A stretch of 64,000 bases of DNA, from contig JAZBOH010000208.1 in the NCBI GenBank assembly GCA_036351055.1, forward strand, positions 2,935-66,934, read 5' to 3'. Position 1 is the stretch's first letter, and each line of letters starts with the position of its first letter. A program made the position numbers and the translations under genes. Positions 57,336 to 64,000 of the stretch are shown piece by piece. The notes below the pieces were generated by a model. The model made no database searches. It was not told where the DNA came from and saw only the letters and a program-made list of their open reading frames with translations. This stretch comes from Lysobacterales bacterium. GTDB taxonomy: Bacteria; Pseudomonadota; Gammaproteobacteria; Xanthomonadales; SZUA-36.

Positions 57336-58682
57336 GTGAGCAATACGATAGAAATCAAGGTGCCCGATATCGGCGATTTCGGCGATATCCCCGTCATCGA
57401 GCTGCTGGTTGCCGAAGGGGACAGCGTTGCTGTCGATGACGGCCTGGTGACGCTGGAAAGTGATAAAGCGACGATGGAAGTCCCGTCGTCTGCCGCTGGC
57501 GTGATTCGGGAACTGCGGGTCAAGCTGGATGACACGGTCTCCGAGGGCGACGTGATCGCCGTGCTGGAAGTATCCGGTGATTCGGCGGCGGGTGACGAGG
57601 CGGCCACGCCGGCCGTCGAAGAAAGCCCGCGAGTAGAGGTGCAGGAAGCGGTAAGTGAAAAACCGGAACAGGTGTCCCGGCCAGAACCGCCCGCTGCAGA
57701 GGCGGCGGCGCCAGGCAAGTCGCAGAAACGCGAAACGGGTGCAGCAGCCGCAGACCCGTCCAAGACCCCTTATGCCAGCCCTGCGGTACGCAAGTTTTCG
57801 CGTGAACTGGGCGTCGACCTCTCCGGTGTACAGGGCACGGGCAGTAAAGGACGCATCACGCGCGACGATGTGGCGGGCCATGTCAAGCAGGCCATGAGCA
57901 GCGGAGGCCCCAGGGCTGCTGGCGGCGGTATTGGCGGCTTGACACTGGATTTCCCGGAACTGCCGAAAGTGGATTTCACCCGTTATGGCGAGATCGAGCG
58001 GCTGCCCATGACACGAATCCAGAAAATCTCCGCGGCGCACCTGCACCGCAACTGGCTTGGTATTCCGCATGTCACGCAGAGCGATGAAGCGGACATTACC
58101 GACATGGAGGCGTTTCGGCTGGCCAATGCCGATGACGCCAAGGCAAAGGGATTCAAGCTGACGCCGCTGGTTTTCCTGATCAAGGCCATGGTGGCTTCAC
58201 TGAAGGCTTTTCCGCGCTTCAACGCCTCGCTTGAAGCGGATGGTGAGAACCTCGTCCTGAAAAAATACTTCAATATCGGGGTAGCCGTGGATACGCCCGA
58301 CGGGCTGATCGTGCCGGTTATCCGGGACTGCGACCGCAAGGGCATCATGGAACTGGCGGCCGAACTGGCCGTGACCAGCGCCAAGGCACGCGAAGGAAAA
58401 CTGAAGCCCCAGGATATCCAGGGTGGCTGTATTTCAATTTCCAGCCTGGGGGGTATTGGCGGCACCGGTTTCACACCCATTATCAACGCGCCCGAGGTGG
58501 CCATCCTGGGTGTCTCGCGGTCCCTGATGAAACCGGTGTGGAACGGCAGTGAGTTCCAGCCGAGATTGATGTTGCCCTTGTCCCTGTCGTACGACCACCG
58601 GGTGATCGATGGAGCCGCTGCGGCGCGTTTCACGCGTTTCCTGGCCAGTCGACTGGAAGACCTGAGGCGCTTGACGCTTTAG
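57336..58682 (+). CDS. aceF: Dihydrolipoyllysine-residue acetyltransferase, PDH E2 (single lipoyl domain)
   Basis: GTG start. Lipoyl motif LESDKATMEVPS, Ala/Pro/Glu linkers, a subunit-binding domain (ASPAVRKFSRELGVDL) and catalytic DHRVIDGA. Confidence 0.95.
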   Translation: MSNTIEIKVPDIGDFGDIPVIELLVAEGDSVAVDDGLVTLESDKATMEVPSSAAGVIRELRVKLDDTVSEGDVIAVLEVSGDSAAGDEAATPAVEESPRVEVQEAVSEKPEQVSRPEPPAAEAAAPGKSQKRETGAAAADPSKTPYASPAVRKFSRELGVDLSGVQGTGSKGRITRDDVAGHVKQAMSSGGPRAAGGGIGGLTLDFPELPKVDFTRYGEIERLPMTRIQKISAAHLHRNWLGIPHVTQSDEADITDMEAFRLANADDAKAKGFKLTPLVFLIKAMVASLKAFPRFNASLEADGENLVLKKYFNIGVAVDTPDGLIVPVIRDCDRKGIMELAAELAVTSAKAREGKLKPQDIQGGCISISSLGGIGGTGFTPIINAPEVAILGVSRSLMKPVWNGSEFQPRLMLPLSLSYDHRVIDGAAAARFTRFLASRLEDLRRLTL

Positions 58683-58695
58683 GCTGGACGGGTCA

Positions 58696-59223
58696 ATGAA
58701 TGAACAACCCGGGCCGGCACAGCCTCGTCCACGAGCCGTTCGCTATTTCGCCTGGATCGCCGTGATCGGCCTGATGTTCGGACTGACCGCGTTTTACCAG
58801 GCCCTGATTCCGGAGCGTGGAGGGCTGGTGCAAAGTACCGGGCAGGGCGGCCAGGCGAAGATCGTGCTCAAGCAGGATCGCAGCGGTCACTACCGGGTCA
58901 GGGGTGAGATCAACGGCCAGGCGGTAAATTTCCTGGTCGACACCGGTGCGACGGACGTTGCGGTTTCTGATCAGGCGGCGCGGGCGCTGGGCCTGGATTT
59001 TGGTCCGCGGGTGGTCGTGATGACCGCGGCTGGTCCGGTAGAGGCCTGGAAGACGCGCCTGGCAACCGTGAGCGCCGGCAGCCTGGAACGCGAGAACGTG
59101 CGCGCGACCATCACGCCGGGGTTGGGCGGTGAAGCCCTGCTCGGCATGAGTTTCTTGCGCCATTACAGCATTCGCCAACAGGGCGACGAACTGGTGATCG
59201 AGAGCGCCGGTCGGAATGACTGA
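58696..59223 (+). CDS. Membrane-anchored retropepsin-like (clan AA) aspartic protease, TIGR02281-like
   Basis: 175 aa with one N-terminal TM helix and the HYRVRGEINGQAVNFLVDTGATDVAVS active-site motif (DTGA). Confidence 0.8.
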   Translation: MNEQPGPAQPRPRAVRYFAWIAVIGLMFGLTAFYQALIPERGGLVQSTGQGGQAKIVLKQDRSGHYRVRGEINGQAVNFLVDTGATDVAVSDQAARALGLDFGPRVVVMTAAGPVEAWKTRLATVSAGSLERENVRATITPGLGGEALLGMSFLRHYSIRQQGDELVIESAGRND

Positions 59224-59236
59224 GGAATCGTAAAGA

Positions 59237-60658
59237 GTGAACGAAAAATCTGCCTTCGAATTTGACGTACTGGTCATTGGCGCCGGTCCGGGTGGTTACA
59301 CCGCTGCTTTCCGTGCGGCGGACCTCGGCCTGAACGTCGCCCTGGTCGAGCGCTTTGATGCGCTTGGCGGAGTCTGCCTTAACGTGGGCTGTATTCCGTC
59401 CAAAGCACTGCTGCACACGGCCGCCGTGATCGAGGAAGCCGCGGCCATGGAAAAGCACGGTGTCAGCTTCGGCGCGCCGGTCATCGACATCGACAAGCTG
59501 CGTGCTTTCAAAGATGGCGTGGTCAAAAAACTCACCGGCGGACTGGCCGGCATGGCCAGGCAGCGCAAGGTGGAAGTGATCCAGGGCCTGGCAGAATTTA
59601 CTGGTAGTCATGAAGTAGAGATCAACACCGGCGACGCGGCGCGTCGGCTTACCTTCAACAACGCCATTGTCGCAGTGGGTTCCCGTTCACTGGAACTGCC
59701 CAATATGCCCTGGGGAGATCCGCGGCTGATGGATTCAACGGCGGCGCTGACCCTCGAGGAAATTCCCGGGCGCTTGCTGGTGGTTGGCGGCGGCATCATC
59801 GGGCTGGAGATGGCCTGTGTATACGATGCGCTGGGCAGCGAGGTCACGGTGGTTGAACTGACGGCAGGATTGATGCCGGGCTGCGACGCCGACCTGGTCC
59901 GCCCCCTGGAACGTCGTATCAAAAAGCGTTACAAGGCGATCCACCTTGAGACCAGGGTGACCGGGGTCGACGTCGCTGACGATGCACTGGTCGCCCATTT
60001 CGAGGGGAAGCATGAGGGATCAGAGAAATTCGACCGGGTCCTGGTAGCCGTGGGCCGCTCGCCGAATGGCAAACGGGTCAATGCCGAAGCCGCCGGCGTC
60101 GAGGTTGATGAACGGGGTTTCATCGAGGTCGATAAGCAGATGCGGACCAATGTGCCGCATATTTTCGCCATCGGTGACGTGGTTGGCCAGCCGATGCTGG
60201 CGCACAAGGCAACCCACGAGGGTAAAGTGGCTGCCGAAGTCTGTGCAGGCGAAAACAGCGCTTTCGATGCACGCGTGATCCCCTCGGTAGCCTATACGGA
60301 CCCGGAAATCGCCTGGGTTGGCATGACCGAGGCAGAAGCGAAGGAAAACAGCATGGACTACGGGGTGGGCAAATTCCCCTGGGCAGCCAGTGGTCGCGCC
60401 CTGGGCAATGACCGGACCGAAGGTTTCACCAAACTGCTCTTTGACAACAAGACGTCACGCATTATCGGCGCCGGAATCGCCGGGCCCCATGCAGGTGACC
60501 TGATCGCCGAATGCGCCCTGGCCATCGAAATAGGTGCCGAAGCCGGGGACATCGGCCTGACCGTGCACCCGCACCCGACGCTTTCCGAAACCGTGGCCCT
60601 GGCTGCCGAGGTCTTCGAAGGCACCGTCACCGACCTTTACATCCCGAAAAAGAAATGA
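59237..60658 (+). CDS. lpdA: Dihydrolipoyl dehydrogenase (E3)
   Basis: 473 aa with GTG start, FAD motif VIGAGPGGY, redox-active GGVCLNVGCIPSK and C-terminal HPHPTLSE. Confidence 0.96.
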   Translation: MNEKSAFEFDVLVIGAGPGGYTAAFRAADLGLNVALVERFDALGGVCLNVGCIPSKALLHTAAVIEEAAAMEKHGVSFGAPVIDIDKLRAFKDGVVKKLTGGLAGMARQRKVEVIQGLAEFTGSHEVEINTGDAARRLTFNNAIVAVGSRSLELPNMPWGDPRLMDSTAALTLEEIPGRLLVVGGGIIGLEMACVYDALGSEVTVVELTAGLMPGCDADLVRPLERRIKKRYKAIHLETRVTGVDVADDALVAHFEGKHEGSEKFDRVLVAVGRSPNGKRVNAEAAGVEVDERGFIEVDKQMRTNVPHIFAIGDVVGQPMLAHKATHEGKVAAEVCAGENSAFDARVIPSVAYTDPEIAWVGMTEAEAKENSMDYGVGKFPWAASGRALGNDRTEGFTKLLFDNKTSRIIGAGIAGPHAGDLIAECALAIEIGAEAGDIGLTVHPHPTLSETVALAAEVFEGTVTDLYIPKKK

Positions 60659-60663
60659 ACAAA

Positions 60664-60753
60664 GAACCCGGGATGTCTGGGGTCAGAGCAAAAAACACTT
60701 TTTTAGAAATCGTGGGCAAGGCATGAACCGGGTTTTTACTCTGACCCCGGTTC
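60664..60753. repeat. REP-like palindromic element of the GGGGTCAGAG family
   Basis: GGGGTCAGAG (60679-60688) pairs with CTCTGACCCC (60739-60748). GAACCGG (60725-60731) pairs with CCGGTTC (60747-60753). The same 10-mer recurs at 19173-19182. Confidence 0.5.
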
Positions 60754-60803
60754 TTCGAGATTAACGGTTGCATTAACCTTGGAAATTACTTAAATTCAAG
60801 CGC

Positions 60804-60884
60804 ATGATCAAATTACGGGCAAACAACGGTTTTCGCCACCTGCGCCGACGCCGGACGAATACTCCGGGCTGGGTTGCCATGTAG
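60804..60884 (+). CDS. Candidate arginine-rich leader peptide of the arg operon (MIKLRANNGFRHLRRRRTNTPGWVAM)
   Basis: 26 codons with 6 Arg, including four consecutive Arg codons CGC CGA CGC CGG (60843-60854). The 3' end overlaps the antiterminator segment. It lies 68 nt upstream of the argF' ATG. No clear SD, so it is possibly leaderless. Confidence 0.45.
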   Translation: MIKLRANNGFRHLRRRRTNTPGWVAM

Positions 60885-60909
60885 GTCATAAAAGTAGATT
60901 CACTAGAAA

Positions 60910-60934
60910 AACCCGGCCGAAGGCTGGGTTTTTT
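60910..60934 (+). terminator. Intrinsic terminator (candidate attenuator) immediately upstream of argF'
   Basis: AACCCGGCC-GAA-GGCTGGGTT (9 bp, one G-U) followed by a T run. It ends 17 nt before the argF' ATG. The 3' arm is duplicated at 60867-60875. Confidence 0.6.
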
Positions 60935-60951
60935 GCTTTGGAGAACAGTAA

Positions 60952-61965
60952 ATGCAGCATTTTTTGAGCACCATCGACTGGTCGCGCGGGGAATTGGACG
61001 AGCTCCTTAAAGCCGCCGCCGATCTCAAGCAGGATCCCATCCGGGACAGCATGAAGGGCAAGTCCATCGCCTTGCTGTTTCTCAACCCGTCGATGCGCAC
61101 GCGGACATCTTTCGAGCTCGGCATGCAGCAATTGGGTGGTATCGCCATCGTGCTGCAGCCCGGCAAGGACGCCTGGGGTGTCGAATTCGAGCCCGGGGCC
61201 ATCATGGACGGGGATGCCGAGGAACACATCGCTGAAGTCGCCGGTGTTCTGTCACGGTATTGCGACCTGATTGGTATCCGCGCCTTTCCCTTGTTCAAGG
61301 ACTGGTCAAGAGACCGCGAAGACCGGGTGATCAGGACCCTGGCGAAGTATTCCTCGGTGCCGGTCATCAACATGGAAACCATCGTGCATCCCTGCCAGGA
61401 GATGGCGTTGATGCTGACCCTGAAAGAACGCCTTGGTGTGGTGAAAAACCGCAAGTTCCTGCTGACCTGGACCTGGCACCCGCGCCCCCTGAACACCGCC
61501 GTGGCCAACTCGGCCCTGCTGATCGCCAGTAAATTCGGCATGGACGTCACCCTGCTATGCCCCGAAGAGGCCTACCGCCTGGATCCGCAGTTCGAAAACG
61601 CCGCAACACAGTTTTCCCGTGACAATGGAGGCAGCTTCGAGGTGACACATGACATCGAAGCCGCCTATACCGGGGCCGATGTCGTTTACGCCAAGAGTTG
61701 GGGCGCCCTTCCTTTTTACGGCCGTCCCGAGGACGAGTGGGAACGGCGTAAGAACTACCGGCATTTCATCGTTGACGAGGAAAAAATGGCGATGACCAAC
61801 AGCGCGCTGTTCAGCCATTGCCTGCCGCTTCGTCGCAATGTAAAAGCGACGGATGGTGTCATGGATGCCGACTATTGCGTCGCCATCGACGAGGCAGAAA
61901 ATCGTCTGCATGTGCAGAAGGCCATCATGAATCGCCTGCTTGGTGCCGCACCCAGGCGCTTCTAG
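60952..61965 (+). CDS. argF': N-acetylornithine carbamoyltransferase (AOTCase)
   Basis: 337 aa. It closely follows the Xanthomonas-type AOTCase pattern (DWSR.ELD, FLNPSMRTRTSFELG, LQPGKDAW..EF, INMETI.HPCQE, LTWT.HP.PLNTAVANSAL, FSHCLPLRRNVKATD, AENRLHVQKAIM). Confidence 0.92.
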   Translation: MQHFLSTIDWSRGELDELLKAAADLKQDPIRDSMKGKSIALLFLNPSMRTRTSFELGMQQLGGIAIVLQPGKDAWGVEFEPGAIMDGDAEEHIAEVAGVLSRYCDLIGIRAFPLFKDWSRDREDRVIRTLAKYSSVPVINMETIVHPCQEMALMLTLKERLGVVKNRKFLLTWTWHPRPLNTAVANSALLIASKFGMDVTLLCPEEAYRLDPQFENAATQFSRDNGGSFEVTHDIEAAYTGADVVYAKSWGALPFYGRPEDEWERRKNYRHFIVDEEKMAMTNSALFSHCLPLRRNVKATDGVMDADYCVAIDEAENRLHVQKAIMNRLLGAAPRRF

Positions 61966-62005
61966 GGCCAGGCAAAAGAATTCAAACAAGACAGAGTTGA
62001 CCGAC

Positions 62006-63205
62006 ATGAAAGAAAAAATCGTATTGGCCTTTTCCGGTGGACTGGATACCAGTTACTGCGTGCTGGACCTGGTGCAGAAAGGTTTCGAAGTGCATACCGC
62101 GTTTATCGATACTGGCGGGGTGGATGATGCCGAACGCGAGTATATCCACAACCGGGCCATCAGCCTGGGTGCGACAGAGCACTACGAGATCGACGTGGGT
62201 CAGGAAATCTGGGATGAATTTGTTGTACCCCTGGTTTGGAGCCACGCACGAATGCTGGGCGAGTATCCCCTTTTGTGCAGTGATCGATACCTCATTGTGA
62301 AAAGCTGCCTGGACCTCTGCGACGAGTTGGGAACGAAGAATTTCGGCCATGGTTGTACCGGTATGGGTAACGACCAACTGCGGTTCGACCAGACGGTCCG
62401 CAGCCTTGGTGACTACGTGATCCATGCCCCGATCCGCGACTTGCAGTCGAAAGTCCAGGCCGTGAGAGACTACGAGCTCGATGTCATGGCGAAGGCCGGA
62501 ATCGAGGTCGAGGCATCCGCAAGCCGGTATTCGATCAACGCGAACCTGCTGGGCACGACGATCTCCGGCAGTGAAATCGATGAATTTCTGCCGCCGGCTG
62601 ATGGTGCCTGGACACGGACCGCCGGCCGCGAAGACTGGCCGCAGGGCGCCCTGGAAATCCGCATCGCTTTTGAACAGGGTGAAGCGGTCAGCCTGGATGG
62701 CGAGGAAATGGCCGGGCCGGAAATTCTCCGCGCCCTCAACGACAGGCTCGGTGCCTGGGGCGTTGGGCGCCATATCTATACCGGCGACGTCACCATCGGC
62801 CTGAAGGGGCGTATCGCATTTGAATGCCCGGGCATCGATGGCCTGCTGACGGCCCACCAGGCCCTGGAAGACGCCGTTAACACCCGCTTCCAGAACCAGT
62901 TCCGCAAGCTGATCAGCGACCGCTGGGCCGAGCTCGTGTACAGCGGGTTTTTCTACGAACCGCACAAATTTGACCTCGAAGCTTACCTGGAAAACTCCCA
63001 GGAGATGGTGAGCGGTGAAGTTGTTATCCGCACCGAGGGCGGCTCCGTGATCGCGATCGCCGTGGACACCCCTTACCAGCTGAAAAACCCGGATGCCATT
63101 TACGCGCAGAGTGCCGACTGGACGCCGGAAGAAGCCGTGGGCTTTATCAAGCTGATCGGTCAGAGCACGACGCTAGCCGGAAAGGTGCGGGGCAGCAAGG
63201 AATGA
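62006..63205 (+). CDS. argG: Argininosuccinate synthase
   Basis: Trimmed to MKEKIVLAFSGGLDTSYCV (399 aa), the ATP-pyrophosphatase motif of ArgG. Confidence 0.96.
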   Translation: MKEKIVLAFSGGLDTSYCVLDLVQKGFEVHTAFIDTGGVDDAEREYIHNRAISLGATEHYEIDVGQEIWDEFVVPLVWSHARMLGEYPLLCSDRYLIVKSCLDLCDELGTKNFGHGCTGMGNDQLRFDQTVRSLGDYVIHAPIRDLQSKVQAVRDYELDVMAKAGIEVEASASRYSINANLLGTTISGSEIDEFLPPADGAWTRTAGREDWPQGALEIRIAFEQGEAVSLDGEEMAGPEILRALNDRLGAWGVGRHIYTGDVTIGLKGRIAFECPGIDGLLTAHQALEDAVNTRFQNQFRKLISDRWAELVYSGFFYEPHKFDLEAYLENSQEMVSGEVVIRTEGGSVIAIAVDTPYQLKNPDAIYAQSADWTPEEAVGFIKLIGQSTTLAGKVRGSKE

Positions 63206-64000
63206 GTTCAACGGCTCTCCTCGGTCACCTGGAGAAGCTGGTTGCTTGCGACACGCAGAACCCGCCGCGCGAGATAACAGGTGACTCGGACATTTTTCAG
63301 TACTGCTCCGGCGTGGTCGGATCCGGCTTCAGGGTGGAGGTCCGGGACCATGGTGAAGGCCACGTCAGCTGGTACGCGGTTCGGGGCGAGCCGGACATCC
63401 TGTTCAACGTCCACCTGGACACCGTTCCGGACGGTGAGGGCTGGAAGAGCGATCCTCATGCACTGCGGGTAAAAAATGGCAGGGCATACGGGCGTGGCAG
63501 TTGCGACATCAAGGGCGCGGCTGCCGCACTGCTCACGATCGCCCAGCAGGCTCCGCAGAATATGGCCTTGCTGTTTACTTCCGACGAAGAAGGCGCGGGC
63601 GGTTGCTGTATCGGGAATTTTCTGGAAACAGGGGAGGGTGAACGCTATCGCCAGGTCATCGTGGCCGAGCCGACAACCTGCCGGGCAGTGCTTGGCCACC
63701 GGGGCTTTCTTTCGGTGAAAACCCGTTTCAGTGGCGAGCCCGGGCATTCGTCCGAGGCCAGGGCGTTGACGGATAATGCAAACCACCAGGCGACGCGCTG
63801 GGCCGCCGCGGCGCTCGCTGTAGCGGAATCGAGAAAATCTGCTGCCGGCGACCCGGGGAGCTGCATGAATATCGGTATCGTGGATGGCGGCAGCAAGAGT
63901 AACGTGATTGCAGGCAGCGCTTTTATTCACTGGAGTGCGCGCCTGCAGCCGGGTGAGTCCAACGATGCATTTCTTGAAGAAATCCAGGCCTGTGCCGCAC
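63202..64000 (+). CDS. argE: ArgE-family M20 deacetylase (acetylornithine / N-acetylcitrulline deacetylase), 3' end outside the window
   Basis: ATGA start-stop overlap with argG. The frame is open to the window edge. Motifs are NVHLDTVP and GRGSCDIKG. Not in the ORF track because no stop falls within the window. Confidence 0.85.
   Translation, partial: MSSTALLGHLEKLVACDTQNPPREITGDSDIFQYCSGVVGSGFRVEVRDHGEGHVSWYAVRGEPDILFNVHLDTVPDGEGWKSDPHALRVKNGRAYGRGSCDIKGAAAALLTIAQQAPQNMALLFTSDEEGAGGCCIGNFLETGEGERYRQVIVAEPTTCRAVLGHRGFLSVKTRFSGEPGHSSEARALTDNANHQATRWAAAALAVAESRKSAAGDPGSCMNIGIVDGGSKSNVIAGSAFIHWSARLQPGESNDAFLEEIQACAA

Follow-up and report, generated by a model that had tools for sequence, protein, structure and literature searches.

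Within the stretch of DNA analysed here, that is, 64,000 nucleotides (nt) of a Lysobacterales genome (contig JAZBOH010000208.1) which are referred to as the window, the genes aceE, aceF and lpdA are followed by a short leader and then by argF' and argG, the former encoding N-acetylornithine carbamoyltransferase (AOTCase) and the latter argininosuccinate synthase. lpdA is on the same strand as argF', and it is the leader found between these two genes with which we are concerned. We read this leader as an arginine-responsive, ribosome-mediated, i.e., leader-peptide, transcription attenuator, one which would take charged tRNA-Arg as its signal and the argF'-argG-argE operon as its target, and we put the probability of that reading at roughly 0.8. 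The reading is based upon sequence anatomy, conservation, the coding signature of a leader open reading frame (ORF), covariation within a terminator, and folds that are mutually exclusive.

An earlier note on this DNA had listed a promoter, a mini-ORF with a run of arginine codons, a repeated hairpin arm, the hairpin itself, and a Shine-Dalgarno sequence, all of which are found upon direct reading of the sequence (Table 1), and the attenuator geometry that was proposed from them is supported by conservation in relatives as well as by the two exclusive folds. On its own the window makes a weak case, with a probability of 0.01, at the window's Arg frequency, of at least 6 Arg in 25 codons, and with fold z-scores for the whole leader of -1.2 and -1.6, which are not significant. 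The z-score of the whole leader was not used as a criterion, because an RNA with competing folds is expected to score in just this manner. That the element is beyond chance follows from its conservation in relatives, that is, rather than from window statistics.

A scan using one genome per species provided 80 loci with an AOTCase 68-85% identical to that of the window. The attenuator unit, consisting of promoter, Arg-cluster ORF and the pairings of RNA region 1 with region 2 (1:2), of 2 with 3 (2:3, the antiterminator), and of 3 with 4 (3:4, the terminator), precedes arginine genes in approximately 57 of the 77 loci with sufficient upstream sequence, as counted by hand and with Xylella and Stenotrophomonas loci standing outside of the comparison. 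In most of the 80 loci the 150 nt 5' of argF' have a layout in common, in which an Arg cluster, GGCTGGGT, a stop and a spacer of about 35 nt lead up to (A)ACCCAGCC-loop-GGCTGGGTTTTTT. When 17 of these relatives are aligned, the alignment displays an invariant TTGCA, a 17-nt spacer, TA(A/C/G)ATT and, 6-8 nt further on, an ATG or GTG, which is in the Arg frame, with that frame's stop falling just past region 2. The check that the earlier note had called for, i.e., for a conserved Arg-rich ORF upstream of the AOTCase genes of relatives, thus has a positive outcome, with the stop of that ORF found in or adjoining the complement of the terminator 5' arm.

The unit is present also in Xanthomonas campestris, Lysobacter antibioticus and Pseudoxanthomonas, where the peptide ends in ...GMTSRARRP...AG, as well as in Wenzhouxiangella and Elongatibacter (both Chromatiales according to NCBI) and in Marinicella (Lysobacterales). 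A covariance model (R1) built from the family recovers held-out loci, among them those of Marinicella at 34-37 bits. With a Wenzhouxiangella metagenome-assembled genome (locus L058, 4678-4850) this model finds leader (MMIEAIALTLIDSPRPGRLPRRPRPRVPHSGQGVR, followed by its stop), region 2 and terminator in front of argG, with argF' in that genome found behind another gene; the L058 leader carries six Arg within the twelve codons of its cluster and seven in total. In Xanthomonas the arg cluster at the locus begins with argF', and the element precedes this gene; the cluster has been described as an operon of eight genes. The 64-kb window contains the element only once, its weak R1 matches being to coding sequence or to ordinary terminators.

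Table 1. Positions in the window of the argF' leader, its parts, and the genes that follow it
Feature	Position	Strand	Basis
-35 element, TTGCAT	60768-60773	+	TTGCA(A/T) invariant across 17 aligned relatives; with 17-nt spacer in about 25 loci
-10 element, TAAATT	60791-60796	+	TA(A/C/G)ATT conserved, with ATG 6-8 nt downstream in relatives
Leader-peptide ORF, 26 codons plus TAG (60882-60884), MIKLRANNGFRHLRRRRTNTPGWVAM	60804-60884	+	Sequence reading, ORF list; in-frame homologues
Arg codon cluster: CGC (R11), then CGC CGA CGC CGG (R14-R17, 60843-60854)	60834-60854	+	RRxRR, RRRRx or similar in 59 loci
Region 1, 5' strand of 1:2 helix, overlapping Arg codons	60842-60855	+	RNAalifold consensus; fold
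Region 2, 3' strand of 1:2 helix; core GGCTGGGTT (60867-60875) as antiterminator upstream strand	60863-60877	+	Pairing, conservation
Region 3, AACCCGGCC; partner of region 2 (antiterminator) or of region 4 (terminator)	60910-60918	+	Pairing, folds
Region 4, GGCTGGGTT (60922-60930), plus T run TTTTGCTTT	60922-60939	+	Terminator 3' half; full stem 60906-60934
Shine-Dalgarno sequence of argF', GGAGA	60940-60944	+	Sequence reading; TGGAG conserved in close relatives
argF' (AOTCase), first regulated gene	60952-61965	+	NCBIfam NF003384, 542.9 bits; PDB 3kzc (X. campestris AOTCase), E = 1.5e-148
argG (argininosuccinate synthase)	61940-63205	+	NCBIfam matches, all under curated cut-offs

The leader reading frame and its arginine codons

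Six of the 26 codons of the window's leader ORF specify Arg, four of them consecutively. This run of four was pointed out by the earlier note, and it is indeed present in the window, but as a lineage-specific trait rather than as the conserved feature, since relatives with AOTCases 88-94% identical to that of the window possess instead RRPW, RRRW or RRTR. The conserved core of the peptide is R-x-L-R-R. Arg-rich leader ORFs are found in 59 loci, the window and three Xanthomonadaceae loci included, and in 52 of these 59 the Arg-richest frame is open over at least 14 codons and has its stop at -9 to +15 nt relative to where region 2 ends, as is seen with just 29 of the 118 other frames. With six of the other seven loci the stop lies 14-19 nt upstream, a distance at which region 2 still is within the footprint of a ribosome.

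The N-terminus of the leader varies freely both in sequence and in length, and Arg positions are kept via synonymous changes; at Arg position 1 across the 59 loci, for example, CGC is used 27 times, CGA 19 times, CGT 10 times, CGG twice and AGA once. Arg accounts for 22.7% of the last 22 leader codons versus 5.5% of codons in the adjacent AOTCase genes. Among leader Arg codons, CGA is three-fold enriched (29% versus 9% in AOTCase genes) and there is a depletion of CGG (9% versus 25%) and of AGG (0% versus 8%). CGU, CGC and CGA are the codons that are read by the inosine tRNA-Arg, and the skew in codon usage hints that this inosine-containing isoacceptor is the one being monitored. As judged from these codon comparisons, the leader ORF is under coding selection for arginine.

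A different way of viewing the same ORF is as the source of a nascent-peptide sensor, with R-R-x-R-R-P (GMTSRARRP in the Xanthomonadaceae) causing ribosome arrest when free arginine, or an intermediate of the pathway, is sensed, as SpeFL does with ornithine and the fungal arginine attenuator peptide with arginine, rather than when the charging of tRNA-Arg changes. Pro or Thr often does come next after the Arg cluster, Xanthomonas, Lysobacter and Pseudoxanthomonas all have the same GMTSRARRP, and R-L-R is similar to a known drug-dependent stalling motif. Between groups, however, the non-Arg positions are not conserved, peptides are anywhere from about 16 to 40 residues long, and the residue found between the Arg pairs can be L, V, E, D, P or R. 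Arrest on the Arg cluster at high arginine, furthermore, would induce, the opposite of what a biosynthetic operon calls for. The C-terminal GWVA, in turn, is lost upon frame shift while its nucleotides stay, that is, GCUGGGU is retained in two frames, as Gly-Trp-Val or instead, one frame over, as Ala-Gly-stop, and because these nucleotides are kept in both frames the constraint on region 2 is one on RNA rather than on peptide. We consider a peptide sensor to be highly improbable.

As a separate observation, the R-L-R or RRLRR core (seen in the window, L001-L014 and L019, among other loci) resembles the Arg-Leu-Arg motif which is associated, in PMC8632094, with macrolide-dependent stalling leader peptides. 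This likeness probably is coincidental, because the middle residue varies, as just noted, across lineages.

Alternative pairings of the leader RNA

Downstream of the leader ORF the hairpin consists of AACCCGGCC-GAA-GGCTGGGTT and then TTTTGCTTT, with its T run found 17 nt before the argF' ATG. This terminator stem-loop, 60906-60934, has a folding energy of -18.0 kcal/mol and, in an alignment of 49 sequences (A1), the cells of 3:4 are 96.6% paired, with 6 pairs displaying double changes and with the observed covariation reached by none of 500 shuffles. Four copies of GGCTGGGTT are found in the window where 0.55 would be expected, with the two besides the leader pair being located in unrelated coding sequence.

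The antiterminator, 2:3, is paired in 89.6% of cells of that same alignment and is almost invariant in sequence. In the window its duplex is of 9 base pairs (bp) and -15.3 kcal/mol, and across loci it mostly falls between -14 and -20 kcal/mol, with p values of 0.03 or less in most against shuffled upstream sequence. Divergent lineages were analysed separately, the program MAFFT having misaligned region 2 of L056 in A1, and here compensatory variants are found: CGCCAGGUU/AACCUGGUG in L056, UGCCAGGUU/AACCUGGCA in L070, a change of C-G for U-A in L035, L041 and L026, and a compensatory variant as well in L058. As judged from these alignments, it is only from divergent lineages that compensatory support for 2:3 comes. 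Marinicella possesses a complementary 2:3, GCUCUUUGG/CCAAAGAGC, in a different register, one which does not beat shuffled controls (p of 0.09-0.18).

The remaining pairing, 1:2, was described by the earlier note as a weak helix, CCGGA with TCCGG. The helix is there, but it is longer than those five bp: RNAalifold, as applied to 16 full leaders, extends it such that the Arg codons, GCGCC..A..CCGGA, pair with region 2, UCCGG..U.GG.UGC, and in the window 60838-60880 folds at -14.3 kcal/mol. Three of the five pairs of the core, CCGGA/UCCGG, display double changes in the RNAalifold consensus.

The degree to which these sequences are conserved invites an explanation in terms of a protein, that is, of attenuation mediated by an RNA-binding protein which, in the manner of TRAP, PyrR or Bgl, reads the repeated GGCUGGGU(U) of regions 2 and 4, with the Arg codons being secondary. 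The motif, of 8-9 nt, is far more conserved than is a typical terminator stem, and this across AOTCases that are 68-85% identical, and its two copies are direct repeats approximately 55 nt apart. A slow drift is explained as well, however, by a triple constraint, since region 2 must pair with 3, region 3 with 4, and region 2 also is coding. Those lineages which have changed, moreover, have altered all three strands (to CCAGGUU in L056 and L070, to CCGGGUU in L035), by which it is pairing that appears to be kept rather than motif, and region 2 of Marinicella is unrelated in sequence, though with the qualification, given above, that its 2:3 does not beat shuffles. An ORF of Arg codons is left unexplained by such a protein, and we would grant this possibility only the slightest of chances.

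Of the two exclusive structures that the earlier note proposed to compare by folding, both were obtained, and in constrained folding it is the position of the ribosome that selects between them. For the full leader the fold that includes the terminator is of -43.7 kcal/mol, versus -37.5 kcal/mol when 2:3 is forced, and RNA extending only to 60921 folds as 2:3. When the four Arg codons are taken in turn as the centre of a ribosome footprint, 60867-60875 is in each case free and 2:3 forms, while with the footprint at the stop codon 60867-60896 is covered and the terminator forms. The distance from Arg codons to T run is 80-90 nt, and that from regulatory codons to T run in the Escherichia coli trp leader is similar.

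The attenuator that is suggested by these folds would work as follows. Transcription from TTGCAT-17-TAAATT would start at approximately 60803, and the 26-codon ORF would be read from a leaderless mRNA. With Arg-tRNA ample, the ribosome would reach the TAG at 60882 and mask region 2 (60863-60877), so that 3:4 could pair; RNA polymerase then would halt at the T run, 17 nt before argF'. With Arg-tRNA scarce, the ribosome would stall instead on the CGC/CGA/CGC/CGG cluster (60834-60854) and melt 1:2, leaving GGCUGGGUU (60867-60875) free to pair with AACCCGGCC (60910-60918), with no terminator forming and the arg genes being transcribed. We infer, that is, translation of the leader ORF in the source organism, stalling at its Arg codons, and a readthrough that is arginine-dependent.

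The 5' end of the leader (60804-60822, AUGAUC...UACGGGCAA) pairs, when the full-length RNA is folded as untranslated, with UUGCC.AUGUAGGUCAU (60873-60889) just past region 2. Complementarities of a comparable 5-6 bp are seen by eye in several relatives, such as ATGAC/GTCAT in L003 and GCTACC/GGTAGC in L007. This 5'-end pairing, as modelled, could be a further anti-antiterminator, one acting in the leader when untranslated.

Promoter, transcript and neighbouring genes

In the window the promoter consists of TTGCAT, 17 nt and TAAATT, with another 7 nt preceding the ATG at 60804, by which transcription is predicted to start at approximately 60803-60804 and the leader ORF probably is translated from a leaderless mRNA. 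The earlier note had made the same suggestion of a leaderless start, and it is strengthened both by the ATG being found 6-8 nt past the -10 element in relatives and by the 5' end that was determined by rapid amplification of cDNA ends (RACE) for the Xanthomonas RNA Xoo5, 2 nt before an AUG. A second group of loci (L015, L017-19, L022, L023, L027, L031, L032, L035 and L037) keeps the promoter and has its ORF start approximately 50 nt downstream, behind a GAGA. Across these loci, then, and as read from their sequences, a Shine-Dalgarno-like GAGA is present precisely where the leader ORF is not leaderless.

With regard to control at the level of DNA, a search of 60659-60951 for an ARG box of the E. 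coli type (TGAAT-N4-ATTCA, with up to 3 mismatches), other operator types being outside of that search, found none; there is a lone ATTCA half-site at 60794-60798. When the window (60774-60803) is aligned with the promoters of L001-L045, conservation is seen to extend far past both hexamers, into the promoter spacer and -10 region (GAAATTACTTAAATTCAA; in some relatives TTACGTAA). A second regulator, acting on DNA, could have its operator here, though the sequence is not an ARG box of the E. coli type.

The Xanthomonas RNA was found experimentally. In X. oryzae pv. oryzae, sRNA-Xoo5 lies between PXO_00354 and PXO_00353, the latter the AOTCase gene; its 5' end was mapped by RACE, the clone obtained was of 124 nt, and on Northern blots it gave bands of about 130 and about 100 nt, varying with growth phase, with no function assigned (Liang et al. 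2011, PMC3039613). In X. campestris pv. vesicatoria, an organism with 14% of its mRNAs leaderless, the Xoo5 homologue was likewise seen to have a transcription start (Schmidtke et al. 2012, PMC3300014). The corresponding Rfam family, RF02242 ('Xoo5, Xanthomonadaceae sRNA'), has a gathering threshold of 50 bits and scores 146.7 bits with the homologous leader of X. campestris, 76.5 with that of Pseudoxanthomonas, and 32.5 with that of Lysobacter. Because its consensus begins with cuAUG, the Xoo5 5' end is placed 2 nt before the leader AUG. In a homologue, then, promoter and short leader transcript do exist in vivo, and it is plausible that translation is leaderless.

The window leader is too diverged for RF02242, which gives no match with it at E of 10 or less, and homology of the window leader with Xoo5 is suggested instead by synteny and shared parts. 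The window leader has the same position and strand, relative to the AOTCase gene, as does Xoo5, and its start is predicted solely from the conserved spacing to the -10 element.

Xoo5 could be taken at face value, that is, the leader could encode an independent, trans-acting small RNA (sRNA) with promoter and terminator of its own, for which the ORF and proximity to argF' are incidental or serve in target pairing only. Rfam's type for the Xanthomonas homologue is 'Gene; sRNA', cells accumulate a discrete RNA of about 100-130 nt, and the terminator is strong and conserved in sequence. An attenuator predicts an abundant short transcript equally, however, so the Northern does not discriminate, and an sRNA leaves unexplained an Arg frame that is kept open in 52 of 59 loci, synonymous variation which is confined to Arg codons, and a GAGA that is gained along with a 5' untranslated region. 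The element, furthermore, always is co-oriented with and directly 5' of arg genes, including at argG in L058. An sRNA of that description therefore seems to us quite improbable.

Less far removed from the attenuator is a dual function, i.e., a cis attenuator of which the terminated, Xoo5-type RNA and/or the Arg-rich peptide acts also in trans, and this we view as a tentative extension that is on the whole unlikely. The products rnTrpL and peTrpL of the Sinorhizobium trp attenuator do act in trans. Were such a dual function true here, and with no ARG box, then the charging of tRNA-Arg would be the main transcriptional arginine signal in a whole bacterial order.

There is in addition a reading without regulation, under which the hairpin is simply the terminator of an aceE-aceF-lpdA operon, with the argF' promoter elsewhere and the mini-ORF a product of chance. 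The proximity of lpdA, ending as it does 250 nt upstream on the same strand, and the A and T runs that flank the hairpin, as with a bidirectional terminator, are in keeping with this. Hairpin and leader are kept, however, at dozens of loci with other neighbours, lpdA being the upstream gene in just 7 and the neighbour otherwise varying; lpdA has a hairpin of its own directly past its stop; a conserved promoter lies between lpdA and the leader hairpin; and the 17 nt between T run and argF' ATG offer no space for another promoter. The chance of this reading is next to nil. The earlier note had named a hairpin serving only lpdA as something that would overturn its proposal, and synteny along with lpdA's own hairpin contradict that possibility. 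As judged across the loci, the element tracks arginine genes and not lpdA.

Just past the lpdA stop the window has, at 60679-60748, an inverted repeat whose arms, GGGGTCAGAG and CTCTGACCCC, enclose a loop of some 50 nt, and the close relatives L085 and L086 have at the same place a compact hairpin, GGGTCAGGTTC-4 nt-GAACCTGACCC. From this comparison the window seems to have an insertion in the loop of the hairpin behind lpdA. The repeat was considered as a part of the attenuator and rejected, as it is not conserved with the leader and matches the post-lpdA hairpin of relatives; its arm does not occur elsewhere in the window above chance. A sub-threshold match to Rfam CC0196, a Caulobacter sRNA, at 60612-60677 (25.7 bits versus a gathering threshold of 35) is the only match near the leader. 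It spans the last lpdA codons (...FEGTVTDLYIPKKK and stop) and a hairpin across that stop, and appears to include conserved lpdA 3' coding sequence.

Downstream, the best NCBIfam match of argG is to NF003385, at 551.1 bits versus a cut-off of 603 and starting at residue 23, with the equivalog NF001770 at 274.7 versus 334 and TIGR00032 at 257.9 versus 268.2. The argG gene call in the relative L085 begins 41 nt past argF', and the true argG start in the window probably is at approximately 62006.

Against an attenuator there are a number of observations to be set. Only 3 Arg codons are found in some lineages, as R-x-x-R-R or R-A-R-R. The leader ORF has no Shine-Dalgarno sequence, and the window promoter, at 7 of 12 sigma-70 consensus bases (counted by hand), is a poor match. 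The 1:2 hairpin, although in the same place in nearly all loci, has a stability that is just modestly above that of shuffles (mean z of -0.76). The antiterminator, within alignment A1, displays no covariation beyond that of shuffles, a C·A mismatch being found at one of its pairs in 9 sequences. Nascent RNA that is free of ribosomes already prefers 2:3, and therefore termination at high arginine relies on kinetics and on occlusion by the ribosome. The 3' end of the Xoo5 clone (nt 124), lastly, is located about 10 nt before the terminator hairpin, where a terminated RNA of approximately 155-158 nt is expected (as in X. campestris L081, 1740-1897), and the Northern bands too are shorter than this, making for just a rough fit in size; this gap may be a consequence of 3' trimming or processing, or instead of imprecise sizing.

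A consensus promoter and terminator scan, in addition, reported neither the leader promoter nor the leader terminator. In our own reading the promoter, at 7 of 12 bases, is too weak a match for the scanner's threshold of 9, and the terminator was missed through pairing between its A and T runs, by which the stem is lengthened and the T tail consumed. These misses were not taken as negative evidence.

Comparison with known systems

Leader-peptide attenuation is the textbook means by which amino-acid operons are tied to the charging of tRNA, with arginine the exception, as ascribed to ArgR. If the attenuator proposed here is true, then the mechanism has been recruited for arginine too, in Xanthomonas, Lysobacter, Wenzhouxiangella, Marinicella and many uncultured relatives. 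There also would be a function for an orphan Rfam 'sRNA', Xoo5, which has been in databases since 2011, a testable regulator of arginine supply for plant-pathogen work on Xanthomonas, and a natural, Arg-tRNA-responsive switch for use in engineering. The earlier note was not aware of any bacterial arginine attenuator, and our search of the literature likewise turned up no leader-peptide attenuator described as controlling arginine biosynthesis, a search in which older comparative-genomics papers are only partly covered, such that an earlier mention is possible. Papers on Xanthomonas arginine enzymes are silent on transcriptional control.

Classical leader-peptide attenuators are those of the enterobacterial trp, his, leu, thr, ilv and pheA operons (among Rfam families, Trp_leader, His_leader, Leu_leader and Thr_leader). 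With attenuation in that sense (Yanofsky 1981, as cited in PMC8632094) the window leader shares a short ORF that is rich in codons for the end product, exclusive 1:2, 2:3 and 3:4 pairings with the regulatory codons found in region 1, a stop so located that a terminating ribosome would mask region 2, and an intrinsic terminator just 5' of the first structural gene. It differs in that arginine would be the amino acid sensed, in a probable leaderless mRNA, in regions 2, 3 and 4 that are unusually conserved in sequence, and in Arg codons that are found more often as two pairs (RRxRR) than as a single run. A permissive scan of 58000-64000 found no Rfam leader, riboswitch or T-box family in the leader.

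The closest precedent in function is Salmonella speF, the leader of which is remodelled when, at low arginine, ribosomes pause at two Arg codons of orf34/SpeFL (Ben-Zvi et al. 2019, PMC6386406). Common to both cases is an upstream ORF of a bacterium whose consecutive Arg codons, through a pause at low arginine, redirect, or here would redirect, the folding of the leader. SpeFL differs in serving a polyamine gene (that for ornithine decarboxylase), in acting by way of Rho, unmasking of a ribosome-binding site, and RNase G rather than an intrinsic terminator/antiterminator pair, and in also sensing ornithine, via the nascent peptide. Its sequence is without relationship to that of the window leader.

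Leader peptides that are leaderless are found with the trp, leu and ilv attenuators of Corynebacterium glutamicum and with the poly-Cys leaders of mycobacteria. These Actinobacteria leaders are like that of the window in having an ORF at or near the transcription start and no Shine-Dalgarno sequence, and are different in being of another phylum, in the amino acids involved (Trp, Leu, Ile/Val and Cys), and in lacking any sequence relationship.

The usual control of bacterial arg genes is by the ArgR repressor and its ARG-box operators. Of the E. coli type, this has the same goal, which is arginine-dependent repression of arg genes, but its mechanism is a DNA-binding protein. The fungal arginine attenuator peptide, of the arg-2/CPA1 upstream ORF, acts at translation, requires nascent peptide and free arginine rather than Arg codons, and has no terminator. 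It too is an upstream ORF giving arginine-specific negative control of an arginine-pathway gene, but is eukaryotic.

Xoo5 itself, as the homologous locus, shares with the window leader its promoter-to-AUG arrangement, a GCUGGGU beside the stop, a ACCCAGCC/GGCUGGGU terminator, and a location directly 5' of the AOTCase gene, with R-A-R-R-P as its cluster. It is unlike the window leader, however, in having been catalogued as an orphan non-coding sRNA, without function, ORF or cis role, and in having an Rfam model that ends before the terminator; the gap from terminator to argF' also is of approximately 100 nt in the Xanthomonadaceae versus 17 nt in the window. It is well supported, across these comparisons, that this leader is a new member, with arginine as its predicted signal, of the known class of leader-peptide attenuators and, at the same time, that this is a functional reinterpretation of Rfam Xoo5.

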